Source: Planctomycetota bacterium (GTDB lineage Bacteria; Planctomycetota; UBA1135; UBA2386). Taken from it: DNA of 64,000 bases. The DNA lies in contig CANMWZ010000003.1 in NCBI GenBank assembly GCA_947501605.1, positions 11,746-75,745 on the forward strand. Direction: 5' to 3'. Under the pieces are notes generated by a model. That model had not been told where the DNA came from and did no database searches. It saw nothing but the letters and a program-made list of their open reading frames with translations. Positions 23,396 to 54,834 of this stretch are shown here, piece after piece; within the stretch, counting starts at the first letter, position 1, and the number at the start of each line of letters is the position of its first letter. A program made the translations under genes and the position numbers.

Positions 23396-24094
23396 GTGTC
23401 CAAACCCAAGATTCTGGTCATCGAAGACGAGTCCGACATCCTCGAGGTGATCCAGTACAACCTCGAACGCGAGGGTCACAAAGTCATCGCTTGCCGCAAC
23501 GGTGAGCAGGGGCTGAGTCGTATCCGCACCGACAATCCCGACCTTGTCATCCTCGATCTCATGCTGCCAGGAATGGACGGCGTCGAGGTGTGTCGGCAAG
23601 TGAAATCGGATCCCATCACCCGAGCGATTCCGGTCATCATGGTCACGGCGAAGGCCGAGGAGAGCGACATCGTGCTCGGCCTCGGGATCGGAGCGGATGA
23701 CTACATCGCCAAACCGTTCAGTCCGAAGGAACTCATCGCCCGAGTAAAGGTCGTCTTGCGCCGCGGACCGTTGCGCGAAGAAAGCGGCGGTGGCGAGCGC
23801 GTCGTCCGCGGCGAACTCACGATCGATCTGGGACGGCACGAAGCCACCATCGGCTCGGAGGCGCTGACCCTGACGCCGACGGAGATGCGCCTTTTGCACT
23901 TCCTCGCTTCGCATCCCGGTCGCGTGTTCCCTCGATCCCACTTGCTGAGCCGCGTCATTGGCGAGGACGCGATCGTCACCGATCGCAACATCGACGTGCA
24001 CGTGCGAGCTCTTCGCCAGAAGCTCGGCAACTCCGCCGATGTCATCGAAACGGTGCGAGGTGTGGGCTACCGGTTCGCGGACGGGAGACGGTAG
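23396..24094 (+). CDS. OmpR/PhoB-family response regulator
   Basis: GTG start. Receiver domain KILVIEDESDI...DLVILDLMLPGMDG...TAK, and a winged-helix C-terminus LTPTEMRLLHFL...IETVRGVGYRF. Confidence 0.9.
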   Translation: MSKPKILVIEDESDILEVIQYNLEREGHKVIACRNGEQGLSRIRTDNPDLVILDLMLPGMDGVEVCRQVKSDPITRAIPVIMVTAKAEESDIVLGLGIGADDYIAKPFSPKELIARVKVVLRRGPLREESGGGERVVRGELTIDLGRHEATIGSEALTLTPTEMRLLHFLASHPGRVFPRSHLLSRVIGEDAIVTDRNIDVHVRALRQKLGNSADVIETVRGVGYRFADGRR

Positions 24095-24098
24095 CGCG

Positions 24099-26998
<2,900 letters not shown>

Positions 26999-27067
26999 TG
27001 GTTCGTACCATCGGCCTTTGCGAGGCGCCGTGCAAGCGCGCAGACAGAACTCGGCAGTGCGCGAAGC

Positions 27068-27802: not shown

Positions 27803-27962
27803 CGGAGCATTGTGCAGCCGGATGGCTGTACTGCCAGCCCGGTGCCAAGACGGTCTGCTCCCGAGACTTGCTCGCTGGTTCCCGTAGTTGCATTCGCACC
27901 GCACGCCTGGGAGCCTGTCCGTCCGTCTGGATCCACGAATCCGGGCCCGACCCTCCCAACCG

Positions 27963-29648
27963 ATGGCCAGTTCCGACGCGCTCCGTCTGCAGACCGCCCT
28001 CCTGCAACTCCACCGACGTGCTCTCCAGGACCACCGTCTGCAGGCAGAACTGGCTCGCGCTCGACGTGAGTTTTTCGGTGTCGAGCCAGGGGTGAAGGTC
28101 CGACCGACTGCCGAACTGCGCTTCCTCGAATGGGCGCTCCTCGAGCGTGAGAGCCTTGCGCTGGCCTCGATCCCGAGTGACGTGCTTGCGGAACCAGGCG
28201 ATGACGATGCGCTGACCGGTTCAGCCGTCGGCGTCTACACGGTTGAGTCCGTCGAAGAGGAACGCGTCGACGCGCGCGACCTGCAGGACGAGGACACCGT
28301 CGAGTTGCTGGTGCCGCAAGGAACCCTGCAGATCGGCGACCTCATGGTCGGACGCATCTATGGAACCCTCCGCGGCACGTGGCAGCCCTCCGCGGCAGTT
28401 GCGATCTACCGCCCAGGGGCGGCGCTTGCCAAGGCGTTTCAACGCGACCTCAAGCGCCTCGAACTGGAGCGTCGCCTCACCCAGGTCGAGATCGAACACC
28501 TCTTGTTGCGGCAGCAGACGCCGGACCACGAGCTCGCGGCCCCGGATACTGGGCCGACACCGGCGCCAAAGCTGATTCCGGGTCGGCAAGTCGAGCACAT
28601 CGAAGCTGAGTTGGAGACCGTGCTCAGCGCTGGCGGTGTCCCTGGCCTGACGACCGAGGTCAGTGACTCCTTGGCCCAGACCGAGCGAATGGGAGCGGTG
28701 ACTGGGCCGCTGCTCGAGCAACTGGCATTCGAGACAGAGGTCGATCTCGACCGCGCCCGGCGACTCCTGATCGAGTTGTGGAACGCGCACCACAGCGGCA
28801 GCCCCCAAGAGCTATCGCCCGAGCCGGCGAAGCCACGCGGCCCGATCGAGCTTGCAGAGATCCCCGGGGAGACCCTGGGGGAGCGCCTCGCACGCCTGCT
28901 CAACGAAGGTCTCTCGCAAAAGCGCGACGTCACCGAGTTGTTCCGCCAGCTCGAAGCCATGGCCGGAATTGAAGACGAGGAAGAGGGTGCCGATGACGAC
29001 GCTCTTGGTGACGCCGGTCCGGCGATGATCCACGCCCTGGAGGGCGAGGACTTTGGCGATCTGGCACCGCTGGTGACCGAGTACTTGTGGGAAACCGCGC
29101 AAAGCGGTTCGGAAGCCGAAGGGCTCCTCCAGCTCTGGATCGCGCTGCAACAGAATGCAGCGCTGCCGCACACGAACCTGGATGACGTGACTGGGCAGGA
29201 CCTGATGCGCTTGCTGCTGCATGTCTACCTGCGTGCGGAACCAACGGGGCGCGCAGCGGCCGTTCGCACGGCATTCGCCGCGGTCACTGCGTTTTCGGTT
29301 TGGGCCGAAGCGACCCAGGAATTGTCCCTCAAGAGTGCGCTGCTCAGTTGCCAGGGCCACTTACTCGACCATCTCGACCGGCTCCAGGAAGTGGGCATCC
29401 GGTTGACAACTGCCACCAAAGAAGGGGCTTCGACCCCAGGCCTGCTGCACGTCGAGGACATCGCCGTCGATGGCTTCGGCGTACGCGGCGACGAGAGCAG
29501 CCACTGGATCGAGACGACCACGCAGATTGCAACGCTGCTGCGCCACGGCGACTTGCTCCTAGCGGCCCTGGTGGAGCACGGCACCGAAGCGATCTTCTCG
29601 GGCCCGGTAGTCGCGTTGCCTGCCGACGCCGAAGCCCTGGTCGGATGA
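27963..29648 (+). CDS. Hypothetical protein (561 aa), acidic, helical
   Basis: Start at the internal ATG 27963 (MASSDALRLQ). Coherent coding composition. No catalytic motif recognised. Confidence 0.55.
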   Translation: MASSDALRLQTALLQLHRRALQDHRLQAELARARREFFGVEPGVKVRPTAELRFLEWALLERESLALASIPSDVLAEPGDDDALTGSAVGVYTVESVEEERVDARDLQDEDTVELLVPQGTLQIGDLMVGRIYGTLRGTWQPSAAVAIYRPGAALAKAFQRDLKRLELERRLTQVEIEHLLLRQQTPDHELAAPDTGPTPAPKLIPGRQVEHIEAELETVLSAGGVPGLTTEVSDSLAQTERMGAVTGPLLEQLAFETEVDLDRARRLLIELWNAHHSGSPQELSPEPAKPRGPIELAEIPGETLGERLARLLNEGLSQKRDVTELFRQLEAMAGIEDEEEGADDDALGDAGPAMIHALEGEDFGDLAPLVTEYLWETAQSGSEAEGLLQLWIALQQNAALPHTNLDDVTGQDLMRLLLHVYLRAEPTGRAAAVRTAFAAVTAFSVWAEATQELSLKSALLSCQGHLLDHLDRLQEVGIRLTTATKEGASTPGLLHVEDIAVDGFGVRGDESSHWIETTTQIATLLRHGDLLLAALVEHGTEAIFSGPVVALPADAEALVG

Positions 29649-29797: not shown

Positions 29798-31930
29798 GTG
29801 TCGGGGCGTCGATTGCCCAGGTGGAGGATGCCACGAATGGGCTTCGACACCGAGATCGATCGTCTGCTGCGTAACCAGGTCCATCTCGCCGAAAAGGGGG
29901 AAGTAAAGCCAGAAGCCGTACGCCAACAACTGATCGACCTTTGGCAGTTGGCCGGGCCGCGGGCGCCATCGGCGTTCTTGCTCGGCTACAGCAAAGTTCT
30001 GCTCGGGCTCGACCTTGGACCTGTGCCTGAAGGCAACCTGCGACGTTGGTTCGTGTTTGGCTGCATGCGTGCCCACGATCGCCGCGGCGAACGCAACTGG
30101 ATCGCGGACATGGTTCAAGATCCTGCGGCGCTGGCCGACCTGCTTGCGGATCCCGTGCTGGCAGCGCAAGTGCTTCCCCTGTGCGTGCGGACGCTTTTCT
30201 GGTGCGGCGACCTGAAGCTCGCACTGCGCGCAATCGAGTATCTGGCTGCCGACGCAACCTCCCCAGAACTGGCCTTGGTGGTGGATGCAGCGGTGACCGA
30301 CTTGCTCGCGCGGCTCGAAAAGCGAGAGGAAGGCGAGGACGAAGAAAGCACCGCATCCATCCTCGGAAAGGTCATGGGGATCGCGGGATTTGACCGCTTG
30401 CCGTCGGATGTGCGCGGTCGCTACCACAAGGCTCTGGCCGAACGTCTGCTCTTGGGCAGCGAGTGGGATTCGGCCGGACAACACGCAGTCGCTGCGGCGG
30501 CGCTGTCGACCGCCCAGTCGCGCATGCACAGTGCGTGCAACGCGGTGGCGGCTCTGGCTCATCTGCGGGTCCATCGCTTGGAGGACCTCGAGCCTCATGC
30601 AGATCGCAACGACCGGGAGCCAGCACTTGCACTTGTGCGACATGTCGAGAGTGAGACGGGAGAAGCCGCACCAACCGCCCACTTCCTGCGCGGCATCCTC
30701 GCCTACGAAACTGGTGATTACGCGGTCACGACCAGGAGTCTCGAAGCTGCGGTACATGGCATGCGTCGCCAAGATGGCCGCGACGAACAGATCGCCGATC
30801 GAGCCCGGTTCTTCTTGGCCGCATCGCTCCTGGCGCAGGGACTCCCGGAAGACTCGTCGCGGGCTCTCAAGCTCATGGAGCGTTCGCTCGACACCGTCAA
30901 ACCGGACCTCGAGACCTTCTACTCGGTACACGAAGCTCTGAAGAAACTGGATCGATCGATCGCCCTGCGATTTCTCGATCAGGTCGACATCGGTCGCGGC
31001 CGCTCCCCGGACCAATTGCTGATGGTCGCACTGGAGTACCTGTCGCTAGGGGAAGCGCCCAAGGCCCTGAGCGCGGCCGAGCGCGTCCTCGCGGTTGCCG
31101 TGGACCTGGACCAGCGGCTCGAGGCGATGCGGGCGATCCTGACTGCTCGAAACATGCAGGGACAGCGCGAGCAGGCGAGGTCGTGCTTCGCCGACATGCG
31201 TGACCTGCTGATGCAACGGGGCGCCTTCGATCAGCTGGAGAAGATGCTGCAGAACGAGGCCTTCGTCGGTCAGGCTCTCGATCATTTCGACATCAAGCTC
31301 GAACTCGCCAACCTCTACGAAGAGATGGAAGGGAAGGACTACGAGCGAGCCCAACTACAGATCGCGATCGCGCGATCATTCCGCGCCCGCAAGGAAGTCG
31401 AGTGCCTGCAGCAGGCCCACGGCTTGCTCCTGGAAGTGAGTTGCCATCATCCAGAGCTCGCGGCGGAAGACCTCCTCGCGATCGAACGGATGTTGGAGCT
31501 GAACGAGGCCTCTCCGGTCGATTCGGATGCTGGTGCAGCAGCTGGCAAGGCGCTCGGCAAGCAACTCGGCCACGCAGTCCGTGTCCTAGTGGTCGGCGGC
31601 AACGAGCGTCAGCGGCGGCATCACTCGAAATTCGTGGATCTGGCCACGCGCTGGGGACTCGAAGGCGAGTGGCTCGAGACCAACTACACTTCCCCGCAGA
31701 AGATCGTCGGGCAGATCGCCGATCGCATGCGTGCAGGCATCGACGTCTTGGTGCTGCTTCACTGGAATCGCCACGAGACCACGGAGCCAGCCCTCGAACT
31801 AGCGCGCAAGAGCGCGGTCCACGCGCGCACCGTCCACTATGCAGGATTCACGAGTCTGCAGGTCGCCCTCGGCGAGATGCTGCAGAAGCTCACACAACAG
31901 AAGCCTGCCAGAGTCGCCGCAAGAGCCTGA
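29798..31930 (+). CDS. Hypothetical protein (about 700 aa), TPR-like helical body with a small alpha/beta C-terminal module
   Basis: Long helical-repeat region. The C-terminal ~110 aa (VRVLVVGGNERQRRHHSKFVDLATRWGLEGEWLE...VLVLLHWNRHETTEPALELARKSAVHARTVHYAGFTSL) resembles the DUF2325 pattern from memory only. The start could be 29798, 29828 or 29837. Confidence 0.55.
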   Translation: MSGRRLPRWRMPRMGFDTEIDRLLRNQVHLAEKGEVKPEAVRQQLIDLWQLAGPRAPSAFLLGYSKVLLGLDLGPVPEGNLRRWFVFGCMRAHDRRGERNWIADMVQDPAALADLLADPVLAAQVLPLCVRTLFWCGDLKLALRAIEYLAADATSPELALVVDAAVTDLLARLEKREEGEDEESTASILGKVMGIAGFDRLPSDVRGRYHKALAERLLLGSEWDSAGQHAVAAAALSTAQSRMHSACNAVAALAHLRVHRLEDLEPHADRNDREPALALVRHVESETGEAAPTAHFLRGILAYETGDYAVTTRSLEAAVHGMRRQDGRDEQIADRARFFLAASLLAQGLPEDSSRALKLMERSLDTVKPDLETFYSVHEALKKLDRSIALRFLDQVDIGRGRSPDQLLMVALEYLSLGEAPKALSAAERVLAVAVDLDQRLEAMRAILTARNMQGQREQARSCFADMRDLLMQRGAFDQLEKMLQNEAFVGQALDHFDIKLELANLYEEMEGKDYERAQLQIAIARSFRARKEVECLQQAHGLLLEVSCHHPELAAEDLLAIERMLELNEASPVDSDAGAAAGKALGKQLGHAVRVLVVGGNERQRRHHSKFVDLATRWGLEGEWLETNYTSPQKIVGQIADRMRAGIDVLVLLHWNRHETTEPALELARKSAVHARTVHYAGFTSLQVALGEMLQKLTQQKPARVAARA

Positions 31931-31941
31931 ACGCACTAGCC

Positions 31942-31980
31942 GGTTGCCATCCTCTCGCGAGCGGGCAGGATCCAGCAACC
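31942..31980 (+). other. Stem-loop ending 1 nt before the qhpG start codon
   Basis: GGTTGC-C-ATCCT-(13-nt loop CTCGCGAGCGGGC)-AGGAT-CCA-GCAACC. It occupies the position where a ribosome-binding site would lie. Confidence 0.35.
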
Positions 31981-31981
31981 A

Positions 31982-33385
31982 ATGCGACGGCCCATCGATG
32001 ACGACAGCCTGCCCGCCAAAGTCGACTGCTTGATCGTCGGTGGCGGCCCCGCCGGTGCAGCCCTCGCCGGGTTGCTGGCACGCAGCGGCCACATGGTCTT
32101 GGTCGTGGACGACGGCGCGCTGCGAACAGGCTCTCCGCTCGAGACGTTGATGGCTTCCGCCTTGCAGTCGCTGGATCGCTGCGGCCTCGGGGAGATCGTT
32201 CGCGCGACCGCCGAAGTCGACCGCCGACGGCACGGCGCGCGGTGGGACGCCGACGAGGTTGCTTGGCGCGACGAGGGCCGCTCCGGCCTGTGCCTTCGCC
32301 GCGGAGTGTTTGATGACGGACTTCGCGACTGGGCCGTGAAGTGTGGAGCGCGCGTGCTTCGACCGGCAACGGCAGTGGAGCTACCAGATGGTGGTCAGGG
32401 CTCCGCCCGAATCCGAGTTGCAGGTCGCGACCTTTTCATCGAGGCGAACACGATCGCCATTGCGACCGGACGCCGGAGTGTCGCCGTGCTTGCCAGCGCA
32501 GAGATCGTTGAGCAGGGACCGCCGACCGCGGCGTTCGCGTTCCAGATCGAGGCCGAAAGCGAGACCGGAGCAGTGGCCATGGTGACGGCCGCGCCCGACG
32601 GCTGGTGCTGGTGGATCGGGGACGAGCGGGGTGGTGCGCGGCTGGTGGCGACTGTGGACGCAGACACGTTGGGCGAACCACTGCGCGCGGTCGTCGACCG
32701 CGTCCTCGAGTATGCCGGCAGTGCGTTCGGTGGCCGACGCGCAGCCGTACTCGAAACTGCCGTGCGGGCAACCTCTCGCCGCGCCACGACGCCGCGTGGC
32801 TATTGGCTGGTAGGTGACGCGGCGGCGACACTCGATCCGTTGGCAAGTCAGGGGACAGAGAAGGCCTTGGTCGGAGCCGAATCCGCAGCACTGGGGATTC
32901 GCACGGCTCTGGCGAACCCAGCGCTGCGAGGGCTCGCGATCGCCCAGCATCGCCGCTGGGAGCACGAGCTGTATCAGGCCCACGCGCGCACGACGGCGGC
33001 GTTCTATTCTCGCGTAGGTCGCTTCGCGGAGCGCCCGTTCTGGGCACGCAGGTCACAGCTACCGCCGTCGCCGAACTTCGGTGCGCTACCGCATCGCCTC
33101 GTTCGCGCACCGGATCTGCTCGAAGGCCCGATGCTGGTCCGCCACACCGAGGAACTGGTCTTGACGCCTGGGTTCGCGCGCTTGGCGGCGGAGCCGATCG
33201 CTCGCATCGGCCGCGTCACGGTGGCGCCGCTGCTGGCCGCATTTGCGCGTCCGCGCTCGGTCGCAGACGGGCTTGCCATCGCCGGACAAGACCCCAGGCT
33301 GTTCGTGATGGGCAGCGCCGTCGTGCGCGCCGCTGTCGTCGAACTCTGGCGAGCAGGCTTGCTCATCGCACCACAGATCGACTGA
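31982..33385 (+). CDS. qhpG: FAD-dependent monooxygenase, QhpG-like (CTQ tryptophan hydroxylase of the QHNDH system)
   Basis: N-terminal Rossmann motif VDCLIVGGGPAGAALAGLLARSGHMVLVVDDG, about 467 aa. Converges on qhpE with a 10-nt gap. The assignment rests mainly on context plus family fold. Confidence 0.7.
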   Translation: MRRPIDDDSLPAKVDCLIVGGGPAGAALAGLLARSGHMVLVVDDGALRTGSPLETLMASALQSLDRCGLGEIVRATAEVDRRRHGARWDADEVAWRDEGRSGLCLRRGVFDDGLRDWAVKCGARVLRPATAVELPDGGQGSARIRVAGRDLFIEANTIAIATGRRSVAVLASAEIVEQGPPTAAFAFQIEAESETGAVAMVTAAPDGWCWWIGDERGGARLVATVDADTLGEPLRAVVDRVLEYAGSAFGGRRAAVLETAVRATSRRATTPRGYWLVGDAAATLDPLASQGTEKALVGAESAALGIRTALANPALRGLAIAQHRRWEHELYQAHARTTAAFYSRVGRFAERPFWARRSQLPPSPNFGALPHRLVRAPDLLEGPMLVRHTEELVLTPGFARLAAEPIARIGRVTVAPLLAAFARPRSVADGLAIAGQDPRLFVMGSAVVRAAVVELWRAGLLIAPQID

Positions 33386-33395
33386 CCGCACTACC

Positions 33396-34064
33396 CTACG
33401 GCCGCAGAGATAGTGCGTTCGCCAGCATCCCGGACGTACGCGCAACCGCGAGGCTGCTGCCGTGAACGTGGGAGGGTGGCAAGCCCGGGACACCAGCCGG
33501 CGGGAAAGGCGACGCGAACCAGAACGAACCGGCGCCGACGCTCTGGAGCCGCGGCTGGGCCGCAGGCACGTTGCCATCGGCAACGACGAGTTCGAGTCCA
33601 CCAATGGCTGCAAGGGCGTTGGCTCGGCCGCACGGAAGAGCTGCCGGAACGACGATGCGCACGCCGCGATCAAGGAGGAACTTGGCGGCGTCCTTGAGCA
33701 GGGATTGCGCTTGCCGTGAGGCCCCGAAGTCGTCGTCGAAGCCAAGGCTGCAGTTGACGACGGCAACATCGGTCATCGCAATCTGACGCAACGCCGCCAC
33801 CAAGGCCCGAACCGAGCTTCGACCGGCGGCATCGAACACGCGCAGGGGCACGACAACCGCTCTCGGGCAGACACTCCACAGCGTCGTCGCAACCGCAGTT
33901 CCGTGTCCCAGTGGATCGCGAGGAATCGGCTCAGCGAAGGCGCCGCCGTCGGCGTCGATGTGCCAACCCGATTGGAGCGCGTAGCCGCGGCATCCGGGAT
34001 GGCCAGGATCGATGCCGCTGTCGACCAGGGCGATGCGCACCGGACGCGGGGCGATCTCAGACAT
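33396..34064 (-). CDS. qhpE: Small subtilisin-like (S8) serine protease, QhpE-like leader peptidase
   Basis: Catalytic triad contexts VDSGIDPGHPG (Asp), GHGTAVATT (His) and HGSSLAVARTSG (Ser). Start at ATG 34064, overlapping the qhpB stop by 8 nt. Confidence 0.8.
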   Translation of the reverse strand: MSEIAPRPVRIALVDSGIDPGHPGCRGYALQSGWHIDADGGAFAEPIPRDPLGHGTAVATTLWSVCPRAVVVPLRVFDAAGRSSVRALVAALRQIAMTDVAVVNCSLGFDDDFGASRQAQSLLKDAAKFLLDRGVRIVVPAALPCGRANALAAIGGLELVVADGNVPAAQPRLQSVGAGSFWFASPFPPAGVPGLPPSHVHGSSLAVARTSGMLANALSLRP

Positions 34065-35199
34065 CCAACATGTAGACCTGCCCCTGGATCTCGCCGTCGA
34101 ACTCGACCACGCGCAGGAGCTGGAAGGTGACGGCATCGAACACCTGGAAGTCACTGCCGGCGCCGCCGACGTAGACCTTGCTACCGTCCGGCGCGATCGC
34201 TGCCAGCGACTGCCGTGGACGGAACTCGGTCTGGAACTCACGCAGCTTCTTGCCATTCTCGAGGTCGTACAACTGGATGGTCGTCTTGCGGTCACTGCCG
34301 CCACCCCAGCCACCATTGCTCGACACAGTCAGTTTCGCATCCCGCGAAAGATAGGAACCGAACCCACTTGGTCCCTGACCCCACTCGACCATATCGGTGA
34401 TCTTCTTCTGCTGGAGGTCGATATCCACGTAGCCCCAACTCGAGCGGCTGTGCTGCACCGGGTCGCTGTACGAGCACAACATGCGGTACTTGTTCGGGTC
34501 TCTGCCAAACAGCAGATCCGTGCGGCGCAGTGAGATACGGCCCTGGCCGGCGAACTGTGGGGTGGCGAGATCGATCTTGCCCGTCTCCTTCAACGTCTTG
34601 GGGTCGACGATCTGCAGATTGCCGTCGCGGTCGAACACGTGCCATGAGAGGCCGTCGGGAGAGATCCGCGCACCGCGAGAGAGGATCTGCGGCATGCGCC
34701 GCATCTTGCGCACGATCTTTCGTTCGCCGACGTCGTAGAGCAACGTCTGCGCTGGCTGAAACTCATAGCGATCCACCAACTTCTTCACTCGATCGGTCTC
34801 GACGTACCATTGGGTCCCGCCGGGCAGTTCCGAAATGCTGCGCACGCGCACGATGACGCCTTCTTCACTGAAGTCGTGGACCGACGCCACCGCGCCCTGC
34901 TTGCAGTCGACGATCTCAACCTTGCGCTGCGTGTCCGTGATCACGGCGAAGTGCTGACGGTCGAACAACAGGGTCACGCCCCAGGACATGCCATTCTGGA
35001 GTTGGATCTTCTTCACCACCGTGTCGGTGACTGGATCGAACTCGACCATGAAATCGGGATACGCCGCGAACCAGAAGTGCGCGGCGGGTACCGCAGGCGC
35101 GGCAGCGACGGGGTCCTGCGGTGGCGCCGAAGTGCACGCACATGCAGCGACCGAAGCCAGGCCAGCCAGCAAGAACGCGGCGATCGTAGAACGCGTCAC
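34057..35199 (-). CDS. qhpB: QHNDH beta subunit (beta-propeller), QhpB
   Basis: GTG 35199 overlaps the qhpC stop (GTGA). Signal/lipobox-like TIAAFLLAGLASVAAC. Repetitive beta-strand pattern. The C-terminal ...KVYVGGAGSDFQVFDAVTFQLL resembles P. putida QhpB ...KLYLGGTFNDLAVFNPDTLEKV. Confidence 0.8.
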   Translation of the reverse strand: MTRSTIAAFLLAGLASVAACACTSAPPQDPVAAAPAVPAAHFWFAAYPDFMVEFDPVTDTVVKKIQLQNGMSWGVTLLFDRQHFAVITDTQRKVEIVDCKQGAVASVHDFSEEGVIVRVRSISELPGGTQWYVETDRVKKLVDRYEFQPAQTLLYDVGERKIVRKMRRMPQILSRGARISPDGLSWHVFDRDGNLQIVDPKTLKETGKIDLATPQFAGQGRISLRRTDLLFGRDPNKYRMLCSYSDPVQHSRSSWGYVDIDLQQKKITDMVEWGQGPSGFGSYLSRDAKLTVSSNGGWGGGSDRKTTIQLYDLENGKKLREFQTEFRPRQSLAAIAPDGSKVYVGGAGSDFQVFDAVTFQLLRVVEFDGEIQGQVYMLDV

Positions 35200-35528
35200 G
35201 GGAACACCAAATCGATGGACTTCCAGTCTTGCACGGGCGCGCCACACGAGGCGGTCCACTTCGGGAAGTTGGTGACGCCGTCTGGCACTTGCGCTGGCCA
35301 ATAGCAGGTGTGGTAGCAATCGTACAGGTCGCGCTCGATCGGCTGGCAGAGGCCGTGGACGCCGCCGCTGCTGTCGACTTCCCAGCCCGGAGCGAACACC
35401 GTCGTGCAACCATACGGATACTCCGTGGGCGGCGGATCCTGAGTCAACGGCATCAGGGCACCGCGCTGTTCGACGACGAGAGCCGCGATACGGCGCGCCT
35501 TTTGGTTGAGGGGGCGAACGTGTGTCAT
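35196..35528 (-). CDS. qhpC: QHNDH gamma subunit precursor (CTQ-bearing, thioether-crosslinked), QhpC
   Basis: 110 aa. The core GCTTVFAPGWEVDSSGGVHGLCQPIERDLYDCYHTCYWPAQVPD matches the conserved QhpC core, with all crosslink residues at the canonical spacing. The ATG overlaps the qhpD stop (ATGA). Confidence 0.9.
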   Translation of the reverse strand: MTHVRPLNQKARRIAALVVEQRGALMPLTQDPPPTEYPYGCTTVFAPGWEVDSSGGVHGLCQPIERDLYDCYHTCYWPAQVPDGVTNFPKWTASCGAPVQDWKSIDLVFP

Positions 35529-36958
35529 TGCGATTCGTACCTCGCGAAGAACTTGGGATCGTGCGCCATGATGCGCGCGTAAGCCTTCAGACCTTGGTCA
35601 ACGTGACCGCGGATCCAGTCGCAAGCATGCAGGTTCGCTTTGCGTGCGTCCCCGTGGCGCACGTGCGCCTCGTGGTAGCAGCCACCGGCGCACAGCGGCC
35701 GGGCAAAACAAGTCTTGCAGTCGGTCTTGCGATCAATGTGGGCCTGTTCGAGAAACGCCGTGCGGATCGACTCATCGACGCCCTTCTGCACCGTGCCGAC
35801 AGCGTGGCTCTTGGATTCGACGAAGCGATGACAGAGAGCCAGTTCGCCCTCGGTCGAGACCCCGAGCAAACCAAGGCCCGCGCCACACGGATGCGCTTTC
35901 TGGATGCCCTGGTGGAGTTCGCGCAGCAGATCGTTGAGGTTGGCAAAGCCGTGCGCGCGACCCGCAATCGCGGCGGTCACGAAGTCCTCGGTGAGCGTCG
36001 CAAACTCGGACAACATGCGATCGTAGGCTCCTGGAGACAGCTCGTAGCCCCGTCCCGGCGCCGCCGTCACCGGCGCGAATCCGACTTCTTCGAAGCCCAG
36101 GTCATCGGTGAGATACCGATAGGTGTCGAGCACCGAGCCGGCGTCGTGGGTCAGCGTCACGCGCGCCCCGATCGGACGTCCGCGTTCTCGTCGATTGGTT
36201 GCGATCAAGGTGCGGATGCGTGGCTCGATGTCGGCGAACGAGCCCTTGCCGCTCTTGTAGCGACGGTGGCGGTCTTGTTCCTTCTCGTCGCCATCGATCG
36301 AGATCGTGATGCCAAAGCGGTGGGCGACCAGGAACTTGATGACCTCATCCGTGAGCAGGGTCGCGTTGGTCGTCAGCGAGAAGTGAATTCGCTTCTGGTG
36401 CCGCAGTGCCTCGGCTTCGGCATAGTCGACCGCTGCAATGATCGTCTGGAAGTTCAGCAGCGTCTCGCCGCCGAAGAACGTGATCGTCAGAACCGAGCGT
36501 TCGCCGCTGCTGCGGATCAAGAAGTCGATCGACTGCTTGGCCGTCTCCGGCAACATCATCGCGCGCCCAGCCGGCGCATTGGCGGCGGTCAGCTTGTCGG
36601 CCCCGTACTCGTAACAATACGTGCAAGACAAGTTGCACTTGTTGGTGACGTTGAGCACCAGCGTCGCCAGCGGGAACGGCATCGGGGGCAGCGCCGCGCG
36701 CGGCGGCGAAGTCTCGCCATCTGGCCGCACGATGCCGAGGTCGATCAGGTCGCGCAGCGCCGCCTCGGCCTCGGGTTCCCCGAGTTCACGGAGAACCGTC
36801 ACCGGATCCGCCGGCTCCAAGAAGGCGGCTGCAAGCCGATCCGCCAACGCATCGACAGCGTGGATCGCCGCCGAATCCGTGAGGTAGAGATACGCGTTGC
36901 CACGGTCGTCGGTAACGCGATGGTGGAGGCCAGTGCGAAGCTTCATCGTTCTTCCCAT
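35525..36958 (-). CDS. qhpD: Radical SAM/SPASM maturase QhpD (thioether bond formation in QhpC)
   Basis: CNLSCTYCYEYG (Cx3Cx2C) and the SPASM cluster region CKTCFARPLCAGGCYHEAHVRHG. An alternative ATG at 36946 would overlap the qhpA stop as ATGA. Confidence 0.9.
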   Translation of the reverse strand: MGRTMKLRTGLHHRVTDDRGNAYLYLTDSAAIHAVDALADRLAAAFLEPADPVTVLRELGEPEAEAALRDLIDLGIVRPDGETSPPRAALPPMPFPLATLVLNVTNKCNLSCTYCYEYGADKLTAANAPAGRAMMLPETAKQSIDFLIRSSGERSVLTITFFGGETLLNFQTIIAAVDYAEAEALRHQKRIHFSLTTNATLLTDEVIKFLVAHRFGITISIDGDEKEQDRHRRYKSGKGSFADIEPRIRTLIATNRRERGRPIGARVTLTHDAGSVLDTYRYLTDDLGFEEVGFAPVTAAPGRGYELSPGAYDRMLSEFATLTEDFVTAAIAGRAHGFANLNDLLRELHQGIQKAHPCGAGLGLLGVSTEGELALCHRFVESKSHAVGTVQKGVDESIRTAFLEQAHIDRKTDCKTCFARPLCAGGCYHEAHVRHGDARKANLHACDWIRGHVDQGLKAYARIMAHDPKFFARYESQ

Positions 36959-39282
36959 TCGAGTCGGGTCCAGCGGATGTACTGCGGCACAGTGACAATC
37001 AGGCTCGCGCGGGCGCGGAAGCTCTTGCGCTCCATGAGTGGCGTCCCGCCGGTCGGCTTCAGCTCGTCGCCATCGCGCGGCGCCGGCATCGGCACTGGAA
37101 TGCCCGCAGGCTCAGGCTTCGCCGCTACGGACGCTGGTTTCGGATTCGGCTCCTGCGCGCCGTCGCCGCCTGATTGTCCCGACGGCTGGGGGTCAGCACT
37201 CTCGGCCGGCTTCTCTGGGACATCCGGCTTCGGGGCTGCCGTGGACTTCGGCGGTGGTTCAGGACGCACCGGCACATCCAGTGCGACGGTGCACTCGACA
37301 TAGACTTCGCCGATGTTGTTGGCGGACCATTTGCGCTGCACGTTCGGGCCGTCGATCGCAGGCGTGAACTCGCCCGTCGCGCCATCGAGCGTGCCGACAT
37401 AGCTGAGGTCGTCGTCATCATCGCGGACGATCGCTTCGCGCAGTGAGAACGTCGCCGGCACCATCCACAAATCGACATCGTCGGCAGTGAAGGGCTTCTC
37501 GTCCGGTCCGCGTGTGACGGTCACCGCTTCGAAGCGCTCGAGTTGCTTGGGGAAGCGGGCGCCACCAATGCGCGCAAGTCCCTGGGTCGGACGAATGCGC
37601 ACGTAGTCGACGGCGTCATAGAGGCGGATTCGCGCGCGCGTTGGCTCGATGCCGAAGGCGACATCGCGCAAACCGACCGGGGTGCCAGGCGCGACATCGA
37701 GCCACAGTCGGCAGTCCGTAGGACTCGTACGTTCACAGCGCGTGACGGTGACTCCGAGACCGAGATGAAAGTCCGCAGCACGGAGCGTTTCCGGGAACGC
37801 GTCGCCGCGCACCGAGAGCACGTGGTCCTTGGCCGGCACGGTGACAAACGGTGCCGAGATCGCGAGGACACGCGGCACGCCGCGATGACGCACCATCGAG
37901 ATGTCGACGCCGATCTCGTCGTAATCACCGGTGAAGAAGCGCCCGCGCATCGAGTCCCAGCGCTCGTCCAGCAGCAGCACCTCACGCCATGTGCGACCGC
38001 CTTCGCCGGGATCCGTCGCCCGACCGCGCCAGCTGTAGCCGCCGTAGAGCAAGCCCCGTCCGCGGCGGTCGATCTTGGCGCCACCCTGGACCTCGAGTTG
38101 CCAGTGCACTTCGTAATCGCCGTCCTCGACGCGAACGATGGTGGCGGTTCCGATCAGATCGCCGCGGCCGATCTCGTGACCCGTGACGGTCCAGTTCCCG
38201 GCGAGCGGCACCTCGCGACGGTTGATCGCCCACTCATTCCAGTCGTCGCTGAACAGCGCCTGCTTGTCGCCGAGTGCGGCGAGCACCCGATCGCCGCGAT
38301 TGCCTTGGCGCGGACCTTGACCGCCGTCGCCAGAACCGCCAGCCGGCCCAGAACCGCCCGCCGGCGCGGCCGCGCCGCCGGTTGCACCGCGTCGGCCGCC
38401 GCGCGCCGCTGGGGCGGCGCCGCCACCTTGGCCACCGAATCGCTCCTCATCGTCCGGTGGACCGCCGCCGATCGAACCACGCGCGAGCGGGAACATGGCG
38501 ACGTGCGTGTTGCGCAGCTGTTGCCATTCCTCGGCGTCCCGGGCCTGGCCGAGCACGCGACCCAAGGTGTGGCAGCCCGAGCAAGCTTCGCGGAAGTCGG
38601 CGTCCTGGTGCTCCTCGGACCAGTGCACCCGCCGTTCACTTTCGTAGAGGCTGCGCTCGGCCTCCGCTCGGGTGAGGCCGTGGCGATCGGCGAGATAGCG
38701 CACGACCGCTTTGGCATCGGCGGGGGACATCTGCAGCCCGTGCAAGCGAATCATCCGCTTCAACGACTCGGACCAACCCTCGGGCGACTTGCGCATGTAG
38801 CTGATGCGCGTCATTAGGCCATTGGGGTCGCGCTGGTGACAACGAGCGCAGTGCGTCTCGACCAGGAGATCGGTCACTGGGATGCCGCGGCGCTGAGGCT
38901 TTGGCTCTTCGACCGCACCTTCGTCCTCGTTGTCCGCATTCTGCCCATTGCCCTGGCCACCTTCGGCGCCGCCGCGACGACCGCGACGTGGCGCGTCACC
39001 CTCGGGTCGCTCGACGATTGCGCCAGCCGCAGGCGGTTGTGTCGGAGCGGTGCCCGGCTCTTGGCCGCTCGCGGGTGTTGTCGTGCTGGCTCGGGCCGAT
39101 GGAGTCTCCGGCGCGGGCTGCGGCACTACCGCGGGAATCGGTGGGTGGCCGGCTGGGAGCGGCTGCTGGGCCGGCTCCTGCGCCGTGAGCGCGCCGGACC
39201 ACGTGAAAACGAGAAGGCAGCCAGCCAGGACGGATTTCATGCGCAGGGGGAACCGCGGTGAGAGCTCGTCGCGCATTGGCAT
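36943..39282 (-). CDS. qhpA: QHNDH alpha subunit (dihaem cytochrome c plus beta-barrel domains), QhpA, unusually long (779 aa)
   Basis: Two CxxCH motifs (CARCH, CSGCH). HCARCHQRDPNGLMTRISYMRKSPEGWSESLKRMIRLHGLQMSPADAKAVVRYLADRHGLTRAEAE aligns by eye with the P. putida QhpA haem domain. Signal peptide MKSVLAGCLLVFTWSGALTA if the start is ATG 39240. Confidence 0.9.
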   Translation of the reverse strand: MPMRDELSPRFPLRMKSVLAGCLLVFTWSGALTAQEPAQQPLPAGHPPIPAVVPQPAPETPSARASTTTPASGQEPGTAPTQPPAAGAIVERPEGDAPRRGRRGGAEGGQGNGQNADNEDEGAVEEPKPQRRGIPVTDLLVETHCARCHQRDPNGLMTRISYMRKSPEGWSESLKRMIRLHGLQMSPADAKAVVRYLADRHGLTRAEAERSLYESERRVHWSEEHQDADFREACSGCHTLGRVLGQARDAEEWQQLRNTHVAMFPLARGSIGGGPPDDEERFGGQGGGAAPAARGGRRGATGGAAAPAGGSGPAGGSGDGGQGPRQGNRGDRVLAALGDKQALFSDDWNEWAINRREVPLAGNWTVTGHEIGRGDLIGTATIVRVEDGDYEVHWQLEVQGGAKIDRRGRGLLYGGYSWRGRATDPGEGGRTWREVLLLDERWDSMRGRFFTGDYDEIGVDISMVRHRGVPRVLAISAPFVTVPAKDHVLSVRGDAFPETLRAADFHLGLGVTVTRCERTSPTDCRLWLDVAPGTPVGLRDVAFGIEPTRARIRLYDAVDYVRIRPTQGLARIGGARFPKQLERFEAVTVTRGPDEKPFTADDVDLWMVPATFSLREAIVRDDDDDLSYVGTLDGATGEFTPAIDGPNVQRKWSANNIGEVYVECTVALDVPVRPEPPPKSTAAPKPDVPEKPAESADPQPSGQSGGDGAQEPNPKPASVAAKPEPAGIPVPMPAPRDGDELKPTGGTPLMERKSFRARASLIVTVPQYIRWTRLEWEER

Positions 39283-39377
39283 GGGACGCGACCCTTAGAC
39301 CATAGCCATGAACTCCCCCGGAGGGACAGCACCGGGGCAGCAAACATCGGGGCCCTCGTCGCCAGTGCGATCTGCCG

Positions 39378-41087
39378 CTACGACGCCCGAACCTGACCGC
39401 CCTCTAGGTGCACGATGCGATCCACGGCCACCGAGTCCGGTGGGCGATGGTCGATCCACAACACGGTGCAAGGCCGCGGCAGCACCGAAAGGTAGCGCGC
39501 GAGGACGCGCTGCGCCGCCGCATCCAAGAACGCGAATGGCTCGTCGAGCACCAAGAGATCTGCCGGGCGCAACAACGTGCGCACAAGCAACAGTCGCCGC
39601 CACTGCCCGGCACTGAGTTCGTGGCTGCCGGCGAAGCTGCGGCCAAGCGGCGTGCCGAAGTCGTCGGGCAAGCCCGTCAACAGTTGGTCGAGACCCGCGG
39701 CCGCTGCACGCGCGCGGAGCGAAGCGTCCTCTTTGGCCTCGGCGCCAAACTCCAGGTTGTCGCGCACCGTGAGTTCGAACCCAACCGTGTCCTGGAAGAA
39801 CACCGCAACGCGGCCGCGTAACTCCGCGGCGGCAACCGTGCGCAGATCGACGCCATTGAGCAGCACTTCGCCCGCAGTCGGCAAGGCCAACCGACACAGC
39901 AACCGTACCAGGGTCGACTTGCCAGCGCCGTTGCCGCCAAGCAACGCGATGCGCTCGCCCGCCGCAATCTCGAGATCGACGCCGCGCAGCGCCGGCGAGG
40001 AACTCCCTGGGTAGCTGTAGCACACACCACGCAGGGCGATGGCCAGCGACCCCGCGGGCACTCGCGATGCGATCGCTGCGGTCACGGCCGCGGGCAAAGC
40101 CAGCGTTGGCTTGGTGGAAAGGAACCGGAACAGATGCTGCACGAAGCGCTGGTCGTCGCGCAGCGCAGCGTGGGCGAGCAAGCTGTCGCGCATGCCGTTC
40201 TGCGTTCGTTGAACGGCCTGCGCCTGCAGCAGCAATCCACCCAGCGTCAACTCCGAACGCAATGCCGCGAACGCGAGGAACGCATAGGCAGCAAACATGG
40301 CCAGCGTCGACAACGCTTGCGCCGCAGTCTCGGCGCGCGTGCGTCGGCGCATGAGATCCAACTGCTCCTCGGTGAGGCGCGCGCGTTGTCGGTCGACGCG
40401 GATGGCCAGTGGTTCGGCGAGGTCGAGCAGGCGCACGTCCTTGGCCCAAGGCCGGCCGACGAGAATGCCGGCAAGGTAGCCGAGCCGACGCTGGGCTCCG
40501 GTGTTGGCTTCCTGCCACGAGAACTGCAGCCGGCTGTGGCGATGGCGCACGAGAACCTGCGGCACGGCGGCGAGCGCGACCACCAGTGGCAGCCAGACGG
40601 CAGCCGTCGCGGTCGCGAGGACCATCGAAACCAACATCGCCGAAGCGACCACGAAGGCGGCAAGATCTTGGACGACCCTCGTTGGTCGGGTCAGAGCGTC
40701 GCCGGCGGCCCGGTGCAGCAGGTCGCGCACTTCTGGGGATTCGACCTGCTCCAGGTCGAGCGCGGCAGCGTGCCGTTGGACCAAGCTGGCGCAGCGATCG
40801 CCGCACAGGCGCGCGTGCCGTTCCCCGATCGCCGTGGCCACGGCGCCAATCACGGCACCAAACAGGGCGATGACGGACGCGGCACCGACCGCAAACCAGA
40901 TCTCGGCTGCGACATCGGGCACCCCGCTGACGCCGCGTTGGACGGCATCGAGCAAGCGCTGCATCGCTAGCAACCCGAGCAGGGGCAGCGCACCTTGGCC
41001 GAGGCGCAGGGCGAGGTTCTGCCACAGCAGCGAACGACCCGCGAGTGCCGCAAGACGCAGGGCCGATCGCAACGGGACGGCGGCCAT
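39378..41087 (-). CDS. qhpF: ABC exporter (fused TMD-NBD), QhpF-like
   Basis: Six-TM N-terminal half. Walker A LLGGNGAGKSTL, signature LSAGQWRRL and Walker B LLVLDEPFAFLD. Heads the qhp gene string. Confidence 0.8.
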   Translation of the reverse strand: MAAVPLRSALRLAALAGRSLLWQNLALRLGQGALPLLGLLAMQRLLDAVQRGVSGVPDVAAEIWFAVGAASVIALFGAVIGAVATAIGERHARLCGDRCASLVQRHAAALDLEQVESPEVRDLLHRAAGDALTRPTRVVQDLAAFVVASAMLVSMVLATATAAVWLPLVVALAAVPQVLVRHRHSRLQFSWQEANTGAQRRLGYLAGILVGRPWAKDVRLLDLAEPLAIRVDRQRARLTEEQLDLMRRRTRAETAAQALSTLAMFAAYAFLAFAALRSELTLGGLLLQAQAVQRTQNGMRDSLLAHAALRDDQRFVQHLFRFLSTKPTLALPAAVTAAIASRVPAGSLAIALRGVCYSYPGSSSPALRGVDLEIAAGERIALLGGNGAGKSTLVRLLCRLALPTAGEVLLNGVDLRTVAAAELRGRVAVFFQDTVGFELTVRDNLEFGAEAKEDASLRARAAAAGLDQLLTGLPDDFGTPLGRSFAGSHELSAGQWRRLLLVRTLLRPADLLVLDEPFAFLDAAAQRVLARYLSVLPRPCTVLWIDHRPPDSVAVDRIVHLEGGQVRAS

Positions 41088-41171
41088 CAGTGGCTGCGAG
41101 TCCTGGATAGCAAGGACCGTTCTGGCTGAGGTTTATGGATCTTCGAGCCCAGCAGAATCCCCCTACCCACC

Positions 41172-41220
41172 CCCCCTCCAGCGGTTCCGATAAGATTTGT
41201 TATGTAAAGTTCGGAGGGGG
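41172..41220 (-). promoter_or_regulatory. AT-rich island flanked by an 8-bp C/G inverted repeat, upstream of qhpF (candidate promoter/operator)
   Basis: CCCCCTCC-(33 nt including GATAAGATTTGTTATGTAAAG)-GGAGGGGG. This is the only strongly AT-rich stretch I noticed in the window. It lies 85-130 nt upstream of the qhpF start. Confidence 0.3.
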
Positions 41221-41259
41221 AGCCACAGGGGGGAGAGCCCGAGCCCTTGGGCGACGCAC

Positions 41260-42327
41260 TCATGGCCGTGGCCCCCGCCATGCGGAGCCTTGGTCGGGCA
41301 ACCATGCCATCGCCAGCACCAAGGTGAAGTCGGGCGCAATGTAGGGCGACAGGTCTTCGCCAAAGACCACCTCGACGAAGAGCTGGCGGTCGACCCGCAT
41401 GCGGGCGCCGAGCCACAGCCACACCTGGTCGCGGTTCGCTCGGTCGAGATCGAGATTGCGCAGCACGGACGTCTCCCAGGACAGTTGCGCCACGCTACTG
41501 AAGTCACTGAGCAGCGGAACTTCGAGCCCGAGGCTCGCGGCACTCACATCCCCAAACGCGAAGCTGCGCGAGCGCGCGAGGTCGGGAGTCCCGGCCCACG
41601 TGTACTGGCCGTCCGCGAACAACGTGCCGAACGCCAGCGGCCAACTGGCGCACAGGCCAGCTGCGTAGTCGAACTGGCCATTGCCAGCGCCGCCGCTCTC
41701 GTCGCCAGTTGGCAATTCGAAACCGGTGCGCAACGCCAATCCCGGCAGTCCCGCGCCGCTGGCGCTGCGACCTGGCGGCACGAGGCACCAGGTAGCCGAC
41801 ACGGGCACGTCCGCAAGCATGAGCGTCTCTTCGCGCAGCTCCCACACGGTCTGCCCGTTTTGCTCGGCGAAAACTTCGAATTGATTCTGCGGCGCGACGC
41901 TGCGGCCCTGGTCCGGGAAGCCGAAGAAGTCGTGGTAGTCGATGAGAAAGCCATCGAGAAAACCACCGCTGGTGTGCACCACCGGGAGCTCCACGGTCAG
42001 CTCGATGCCAGCGCCGATTCCCGTTCGTCCTTGGATGCTGGTGCGCATCAGTTCGCCGTCCATCGCGAATGCCTCGGTGGCGTTGCTGTCGCCGAGAAAC
42101 AGACTCGAGTAGGCCGTGCTCGCCCGAACCGCCGTGTCGCCGCTTGGCAGCACCGAAGGCGAGGCCGGATCCAGCCGCATCACGGTCAACTGGGCGGGGT
42201 GCTGGTTGCGCACCGCCAGCGGTCCATGGCTGGGCGCCGGGCCAGCGCTGCATGCCGAGGCCGACACCGCGACTGCAGTCCACCAGCCGACGGCACCTCG
42301 TTCTGTGCACTTGCGCGTTACGTGCAT
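41260..42327 (-). CDS. Putative outer-membrane beta-barrel protein (hypothetical)
   Basis: Signal peptide with a lipobox-like AVSASAC. Alternating hydrophobic beta-strand pattern. C-terminal aromatic-rich end ...FTLVLAMAWLPDQGSAWRGPRP. No family confirmed. Confidence 0.45.
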   Translation of the reverse strand: MHVTRKCTERGAVGWWTAVAVSASACSAGPAPSHGPLAVRNQHPAQLTVMRLDPASPSVLPSGDTAVRASTAYSSLFLGDSNATEAFAMDGELMRTSIQGRTGIGAGIELTVELPVVHTSGGFLDGFLIDYHDFFGFPDQGRSVAPQNQFEVFAEQNGQTVWELREETLMLADVPVSATWCLVPPGRSASGAGLPGLALRTGFELPTGDESGGAGNGQFDYAAGLCASWPLAFGTLFADGQYTWAGTPDLARSRSFAFGDVSAASLGLEVPLLSDFSSVAQLSWETSVLRNLDLDRANRDQVWLWLGARMRVDRQLFVEVVFGEDLSPYIAPDFTLVLAMAWLPDQGSAWRGPRP

Positions 42328-54776: not shown

Positions 54777-54834
54777 GTGAAGGTGCGGGCGCCAAGCGCT
54801 GGTTAGCGGAAGCGCGGGAAGCTACCGTGCCGAC

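Follow-up and report, generated by a model that had tools for sequence, protein, structure and literature searches.

What system do the seven adjacent genes at 31982–41087 of a 64,000-nucleotide (nt) stretch of Planctomycetota DNA encode, given that they bring together a radical SAM/SPASM maturase, a Cys-rich precursor, a protease, and an ABC exporter? The stretch (hereafter the window, in which all positions are numbered) belongs to contig CANMWZ010000003.1 of a Planctomycetota bacterium (GCA_947501605.1). We conclude, with a probability of roughly 0.88, that the region is a complete and apparently functional quinohemoprotein amine dehydrogenase (QHNDH) with its dedicated maturation system from a freshwater planctomycete, the function being assigned by homology. 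A preliminary description of this DNA had recognised in it the full complement of QHNDH structural and maturation genes, of a known family, and this identification holds, each product having its best or only specific match in the Qhp family. The genes, and the region preceding them, are (lengths in amino acids [aa]):

41088–41259 (−): 172 nt between genes, ahead of qhpF; judged from position only, the likely site of the promoter for the F-A-D-C-B-E string
39378–41087 (−): qhpF-like ABC exporter, 569 aa, with a transmembrane domain and an ATPase domain and no peptidase domain
36943–39282 (−): qhpA, dihaem alpha-subunit precursor, 779 aa
35525–36958 (−): qhpD, radical SAM/SPASM thioether-forming maturase, 477 aa from ATG 36958 or 473 aa from ATG 36946
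35196–35528 (−): qhpC, gamma-subunit precursor, 110 aa
34057–35199 (−): qhpB, beta subunit, seven-bladed beta-propeller, 380 aa, GTG start
33396–34064 (−): qhpE, small subtilisin-like leader peptidase, 222 aa
31982–33385 (+): qhpG, flavin adenine dinucleotide (FAD)-dependent peptidyl-tryptophan dihydroxylase, 467 aa, convergent on qhpE

All seven open reading frames (ORFs) of the preliminary description were recovered at these coordinates, those of QhpB and QhpE starting inside longer, mechanically delimited ORFs, and the translations contain every motif that it had named (GGNGAGKST, LSAGQ, LLVLDEP, CARCH, CSGCH, CNLSCTYC, CKTCFARPLCAGGCYHEA, DSGID, HGTAV, GSSLA, and GGGPAGA). An identical contig of the Joint Genome Institute (JGI; 3300037492 Ga0393274_0001027) carries an independent gene call that agrees on the lengths of QhpB, QhpE, QhpC, QhpG, and QhpF; there, QhpD is called at 473 aa (i.e., from ATG 36946), which is probably its start, ATG 36958 being the alternative. 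An exact-sequence lookup with QhpB led to this contig; with QhpD, such a lookup had no match. The junctions, too, read directly from the sequence and with the JGI start for qhpD, are as first described: ATGA overlaps at A/D (if qhpD starts at 36946) and D/C, a GTGA overlap at C/B, an 8-nt overlap at B/E, and converging stop codons of qhpE and qhpG separated by 10 nt. The ATGA overlaps at A/D and D/C are seen again in relatives.

Structural subunits

We scored the products against NCBIfam profile models, using the curated (equivalog) cut-offs of NCBI in bits, and ran Pfam alongside. QhpA reaches 387.7 bits against TIGR03908 (cut-off, 274), QhpD 510.5 bits against TIGR03906 (cut-off, 453), and QhpC 126.8 bits against NF037958 (cut-off, 50); since these models are specific to QHNDH, the identity of the locus lies far beyond chance.

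QhpA also matches all four Pfam domains of the alpha subunit (PF09098, PF14930, PF09099, and PF09100), and its best match in the PDB is 1jmx_A (E = 3.7e-58), with 1jju_A at E = 1e-47. The protein begins with a signal peptide and a low-complexity linker (residues ~35 to 135), followed by the haem domain (C145xxCH and C234xxCH), a Gly/Ala-rich linker (~267 to 332), domains II to IV, a Pro/Glu/Lys-rich linker (~668 to 745), and a conserved C-terminal segment. It is these three low-complexity linkers that bring QhpA to 779 aa. They occur clade-wide, in Planctomycetota QhpA proteins of 580 to 840 aa, and vary in length and sequence: in an alignment of 15 QhpA sequences (the window and 14 Planctomycetota homologues), both CxxCH motifs are invariant and the linkers variable. 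On the identical JGI contig (L087:1877–4195), QhpA is called at only 623 aa, lacking the signal peptide and the first CxxCH, and a 136-aa antisense ORF is called within the low-complexity N-terminal region of the gene. The homologue alignment favours the 779-aa ORF; the shorter call is wrong and the antisense ORF spurious.

The beta subunit was assigned by fold and by position. An AlphaFold model of QhpB (predicted local distance difference test, 87.2; predicted template-modelling score, 0.82) was compared with the PDB by Foldseek, and the two QHNDH beta subunits came out ahead of all other propellers (TM-score, 0.54 to 0.63): 1jju_B was first by E-value (1.3e-18), and 1jmx_B was second (4.7e-18), yet with the higher TM-score (0.58/0.63). 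In the structural alignment, QhpB is 16 to 18% identical to these crystallised subunits. As qhpB directly follows qhpC in all loci compared, we take the propeller, on the grounds of its top structural matches and this invariant synteny, to be QhpB. Its signal peptide ends in a lipobox-like LASVAAC, for which the closest relatives have SV(A/S)AC (VSAC or VAAC), whereas more distant relatives have cleavage sites of the Ala-Gln type, which are not lipobox-like. QhpB may accordingly be lipid-anchored in the sublineage of the window, tethering the enzyme to the membrane.

The gamma-subunit precursor, which is also matched by Pfam PF08992, combines a leader of about 34 to 38 aa with a core whose modified residues can be placed by alignment to 1jju_C and 1jmx_G. 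Three thioether pairs (Cys41-Glu50, Cys61-Asp67, and Cys75-Asp83) are recognised in this way, and the residues of the cysteine tryptophylquinone (CTQ) cofactor, Cys71 and Trp77, are in register with both structures. These crosslink and CTQ residues are invariant in 123 aligned sequences, bar one with Gly in place of Trp77, and are kept in 84 of 86 loci, the remaining two having a TGA at the Cys61 codon. Within the leader, Pro6, Asn8, Lys10-Ala11-Arg12-Arg13, and Ala15 are invariant in five planctomycete sequences; across phyla, the motif is nearly invariant only as Asn8-x-Lys10-Ala11.

Maturation and export proteins

Beyond its score against the QhpD model, the radical SAM enzyme matches CteB (5wgg_A; E = 9e-52), and its 10 cysteines (three of the radical SAM motif CX3CX2C and seven SPASM/auxiliary) are kept in nearly all of the 75 to 79 loci that cover each position. 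The small protease matches Pfam PF00082, its sole NCBIfam match is NF049966, and its size and position fit the Qhp leader peptidase. Of its triad motifs (Asp15, His54, and Ser204), Asp15 and Ser204 do not vary across 57 aligned loci, and His54 lies within an HGT motif aligned to subtilases.

QhpG has its best family match in NF049967, the runners-up being GoxB (69.9 bits) and LodB (62 bits), and it matches the peptidyl tryptophan dihydroxylase 7ctq_A at E = 9e-17. In the alignment to 7ctq_A, the GxGxxG motif, the equivalent of Glu42, the W-x-W motif (equivalents of Trp181 and Trp183), and GDAA are retained. The convergent position of qhpG is likewise kept in Planctomycetota.

The ABC protein has hydrophobic segments in its N-terminal half and all ATPase motifs, scores 100.7 bits against Pfam ABC_tran, and aligns over its full length with CydD (58–561), MsbA, and LssB-type exporters in NCBIfam. 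A QhpF-specific model does not appear among the best 25 of its 179 NCBIfam matches. By profile, it would therefore rank as a generic ABC exporter, and it is designated qhpF-like by its architecture and its place in the cluster. In Planctomycetota loci, qhpF stands ahead of qhpA also, with a SAM-dependent methyltransferase gene lying between the two in one relative (L003:5390–6142).

Proposed mechanism

The pathway is modelled on the characterised systems of Paracoccus and Pseudomonas (PMC7876137). QhpD would bind the 110-aa QhpC precursor via its conserved leader and form three thioethers while the leader is in place; Trp77 would be dihydroxylated by the flavoprotein QhpG, the leader cut off by QhpE, and the crosslinked peptide exported to the periplasm by QhpF. 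There, QhpC would assemble with the Sec-exported dihaem cytochrome c QhpA and with the beta-propeller QhpB (probably lipid-anchored), and the Cys71-Trp77 CTQ would be completed. The mature enzyme is predicted to turn primary amines into aldehydes and ammonium, passing electrons via the two haems to a soluble acceptor whose gene lies elsewhere. The amine substrate, like the co-transcription and translational coupling of the F-A-D-C-B-E string, is something that we infer.

Weighing of alternatives

Several observations weigh against assignment to QHNDH. QhpB fails its equivalog model outright (TIGR03907: 38.2 bits; cut-off, 223.2), and QhpE (86.3 bits; cut-off, 165) and QhpG (180.2 bits; cut-off, 240) remain below theirs. 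The profile search that the preliminary description had proposed as a check thus bore out QhpA, QhpD, and QhpC above their cut-offs, and QhpE and QhpG as best matched by Qhp models though below theirs, whereas QhpB needed the fold comparison, and QhpF was generic. In a pairwise search, the halogenase 8zop_A is as close to QhpG as is 7ctq_A (a resemblance of QhpG to flavin halogenases has been described [PMC7876137]), and the Arg47 on which the activity of the crystallised QhpG depends is matched by a Ser in the window, in an alignment that is itself uncertain. No regulator, electron acceptor, or aldehyde dehydrogenase gene adjoins the cluster, and the branch to which it belongs, with five gamma-subunit cysteines and a divergent beta subunit, has no biochemically characterised member, such that substrate and activity are extrapolated. 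As for QhpB, TIGR03907 likewise fails on the proteins of Acidobacteriota, Rhodospirillaceae, and other Planctomycetota (19 to 69 bits). We rejected a divergence special to the window for this reason: the failure across phyla reflects a narrow model. The juxtaposition of a radical SAM/SPASM maturase, a Cys-rich, leader-bearing precursor, a protease, and an ABC exporter might also be read as a novel cluster for a ribosomally synthesised and post-translationally modified peptide (RiPP), of ranthipeptide or sactipeptide-like type, making a secreted bioactive peptide, and QhpD does match the models of PapB (265.3 bits) and the SCIFF maturase (215.8 bits). Both scores are below the respective cut-offs (340 and 425), whereas the QhpD model is matched above its own; the precursor is unambiguously QH_gamma, with the CTQ Cys and Trp kept; and a dihaem alpha and a propeller beta subunit are encoded in the same gene string. 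This reading is effectively refuted, and we consider it improbable in the extreme. Hardly any more credit is due to the proposal that the locus is the relic of a horizontally acquired qhp cluster, decaying or without function, for which the missing regulator, acceptor, and downstream aldehyde dehydrogenase and the long low-complexity insertions in QhpA could be cited: all seven ORFs are intact with their catalytic and ligand residues conserved, the GC content and codon bias of the cluster match those of its flanks, the QhpA linkers are found clade-wide in Planctomycetota, and the layout is kept in loci with as little as 37% QhpB identity.

A further alternative leaves the machinery as it is and changes the product: QhpC may carry a fourth QhpD-made link, from Cys95 to Asp106 (or Asp101), and thereby define a distinct QHNDH subtype, which would be common to Acidobacteriota and some Alphaproteobacteria and possibly different in stability or substrate range. 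Cys95 and Asp106 are absent from both crystallised gamma subunits, and Cys95 together with an acidic residue 106 is universal in the 120 closest QhpC homologues and in all 86 loci (82 with Asp and four with Glu). By these residues, QhpC belongs to a large, uncharacterised five-Cys subtype. An exhaustive search gave 133 representative QhpC proteins at 50% identity, 62 of which cover both positions; here, the pair 95/106 is Cys/Asp in 38, Cys/Glu in one, Cys/Cys in three, and Lys/Asp in three, the last two combinations being disulphide-like and salt-bridge-like, respectively, and suggestive of spatial closeness. Among 15 aligned QhpA and 33 aligned QhpB homologues, there is no conserved Cys able to pair with Cys95 in an inter-subunit disulphide, and Cys95 stands upstream of its acidic partner, as does the Cys in all known QhpD crosslinks. 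Co-occurrence is, however, imperfect (seven representatives combine Cys95 with Asn, Thr, Gln, Lys, or Pro at 106, and about seven have Asp106 without Cys95), the i+11 spacing exceeds the known i+6 to i+9, the data fit equally well with Cys95 as a free thiol or in another role, and an account supporting the link was not found in the searchable literature. A fourth thioether between Cys95 and Asp106 is reasonable but unproven, and we lean against it; the broader proposal of a distinct subtype with a different product is likewise possible but less likely than not.

TGA variants of qhpC in relatives

In two different Planctomycetota lineages, a TGA replaces the codon of the second thioether Cys (Cys61 in window numbering), and the reading frame is fully conserved beyond it. 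One of the two variants was found again on an independent JGI metagenome contig. The genes are at:

L013:1527–1835, L061:3593–3901, and L088:1949–2257 (minus strand): qhpC with an in-frame TGA at the Cys61 codon

The TGA could specify selenocysteine, hence a selenoether crosslink. In L013 and L061, the 63 nt from the TGA fold no more stably than shuffled sequences (z, +0.75 to +1.6) and thus do not demonstrate a selenocysteine insertion sequence (SECIS) element, and a tRNA-Sec was not found within the TGA-containing loci. Taken jointly, these observations would describe a five-Cys QHNDH subtype of Planctomycetota, Acidobacteriota, and some Alphaproteobacteria with a fourth thioether Cys95-Asp106 (Cys95-Cys106 in rare relatives) and, in some planctomycetes, selenocysteine at Cys61, implying a selenoether; we regard this combined picture as doubtful.

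Gene order and distribution

In Paracoccus denitrificans, the operon runs in the order qhpADCBEFG and is accompanied by qhpR; its enzyme (PDB 1JJU) and its QhpG (7CTQ) are structurally resolved. The order in the window does differ from this, as the preliminary description had stated in calling it rearranged, but it is typical of Planctomycetota and not peculiar to this locus. Most Planctomycetota loci that we examined, down to 37% QhpB identity, have F-A-D-C-B-E and a convergent G, and those with the same order and orientation have unrelated flanking genes. The same layout amid differing flanks makes the seven genes appear as a conserved, self-contained unit. According to Oozeki et al. (2021), qhp genes vary in their arrangement, order, and strand, and more than 1300 species carry the operon; given this variability and the repetition of the layout among Planctomycetota, the gene order in the window is lineage-typical and not new. 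By alignment and synteny, the catalytic and crosslink residues all appear conserved, as does the layout throughout the phylum.

In a scan for QhpC, at least 592 species genomes proved to carry it. The nearest QhpC loci come from freshwater Planctomycetota metagenome-assembled genomes (MAGs), namely Erken-D3_bin-1231 at 93% and LBMAG CL500-15 at 85%, and the window itself comes from a freshwater lineage of Planctomycetota. In public records, QhpA and QhpC of Planctomycetota MAGs are already labelled as subunits of quinohemoprotein amine dehydrogenase; the named planctomycete QhpB homologues that we retrieved carry the label “hypothetical protein,” because the NCBI QhpB model misses them.

In five loci of Bryobacteraceae/Acidobacteriaceae (L027, L038, L054, L078, and L084), qhpC and qhpB come straight after qhpA, and no qhpD was found by tblastn within 20 kb. 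Other full-length loci have a qhpD match, and a few truncated ones (e.g., L033) are without a match too. The qhpD genes of these five must sit elsewhere or have diverged beyond detection.

Regulation and surroundings

The preliminary description had seen no AraC-type regulator in the window, and we detected none: an AraC-type helix-turn-helix was not found among the 660 window ORFs of at least 60 aa (a weak test, for which the probe was an Escherichia coli MarA sequence), nor did a Pfam scan of flanking genes show an AraC-type gene. The one regulatory pair found within about 10 kb of the cluster, at 23396–25358 (+) and 6.6 kb away, consists of an OmpR-type response regulator and a PAS/HisKA histidine kinase, with no other regulator found in that range; a hybrid kinase lies near the cluster in one relative (L001) too. 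A simple sigma-70 promoter scan of 31500–41500 gave no promoter-like site, including upstream of qhpF, and the 10 terminator-like sites in the same interval (close to the 6.0 ± 2.5 expected from shuffling) are all inside genes. In an Rfam scan of 25 to 46 kb, the only match was a thiamine pyrophosphate riboswitch outside the cluster (RF00059; 72.5 bits; 26908–27003, −), upstream of thiC (25334–26920, −).

With regard to downstream functions, CxxCH, as expected of a c-type cytochrome acceptor, occurs among the codon-biased window ORFs only in QhpA. The only aldehyde dehydrogenase family gene found (PF00171; 210 bits; 53187–54821, −) is 12 kb off and unlinked; its product could in principle take the aldehyde.

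Two large, codon-biased ORFs without a Pfam match precede qhpG on the same strand (27888–29648, +, 586 aa, and 29798–31930, +, 710 aa), the second ending 51 nt before it, and qhpG could be co-transcribed with them. On the other side, a DUF3187 protein gene (41260–42327, −) is the immediate upstream neighbour of qhpF, on its strand and across the 172-nt gap. Neither the two ORFs nor the DUF3187 gene stands beside qhpG or qhpF, respectively, in three more distant loci (L001, L003, and L005/L006).

Significance

The system is known, is already partly annotated in the phylum, and has a normal layout; it is unusual only in the conserved fifth Cys of QhpC. As such, its interest lies chiefly in the five-Cys subtype, which is uncharacterised, and in the TGA variants of relatives, and not in the features highlighted in the preliminary description. 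Periplasmic oxidation of primary amines is probably within the reach of this freshwater lineage, and automated scans should not score the locus as a new RiPP system. The NCBI model of QhpB and, to a lesser extent, those of QhpE and QhpG miss a large part of the family. Both crystallised enzymes are of the four-Cys form, whereas most QhpC cluster representatives have a fifth Cys; if Cys95 does form a fourth crosslink, accounts of QhpD chemistry and of the gamma-subunit scaffold would have to be widened. Among the carriers of a five-Cys cluster, Edaphobacter modestus DSM 18101 is in culture.

Comparison with known systems

Two groups of systems share only part of the chemistry. Ranthipeptide/SCIFF maturases (PapB and CteB [5WGG]) have the radical SAM and SPASM fold and form thioethers, but they act on free peptides, whereas the substrate of QhpD in the window is an enzyme subunit that also carries the quinone cofactor. 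The CTQ oxidases LodA/GoxA share the cofactor and, in LodB/GoxB, a related Trp-hydroxylating flavoprotein; these are single-subunit oxidases without a haem subunit, radical SAM crosslinks, or ABC export.

The QHNDH of Paracoccus denitrificans corresponds to the window in all seven components, in the A-D-C-B core order, and in an alpha subunit made of a dihaem domain and three further domains; the gamma core is 50 to 55% identical, and the crosslink and CTQ residues are the same. The window differs in that qhpF leads the string, qhpG is convergent, and an AraC-type qhpR was not found; its QhpA is about 290 aa longer (by the three low-complexity linkers), its QhpC has a longer leader in addition to the extra Cys95 and Asp106, and its QhpB has only the aforementioned 16 to 18% identity to the crystallised beta subunits. 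The enzyme of Pseudomonas putida (1JMX) is the best PDB match for QhpA and has the same conserved gamma residues; its gamma subunit contains four Cys only, and the other differences are as for Paracoccus.

Acidobacteriota have five-Cys clusters too, likewise uncharacterised (e.g., Edaphobacter modestus DSM 18101 [L052] and Bryobacter). Unlike in the window, their F and E genes are found side by side downstream of B, with G elsewhere, and tblastn matches to QhpA span about 500 residues, suggestive of a shorter QhpA. These clusters share with the window the A-D-C-B core, a QhpB that is likewise below the TIGR03907 cut-off (52 to 69 bits), and a QhpC with both Cys95 and Asp/Glu106.

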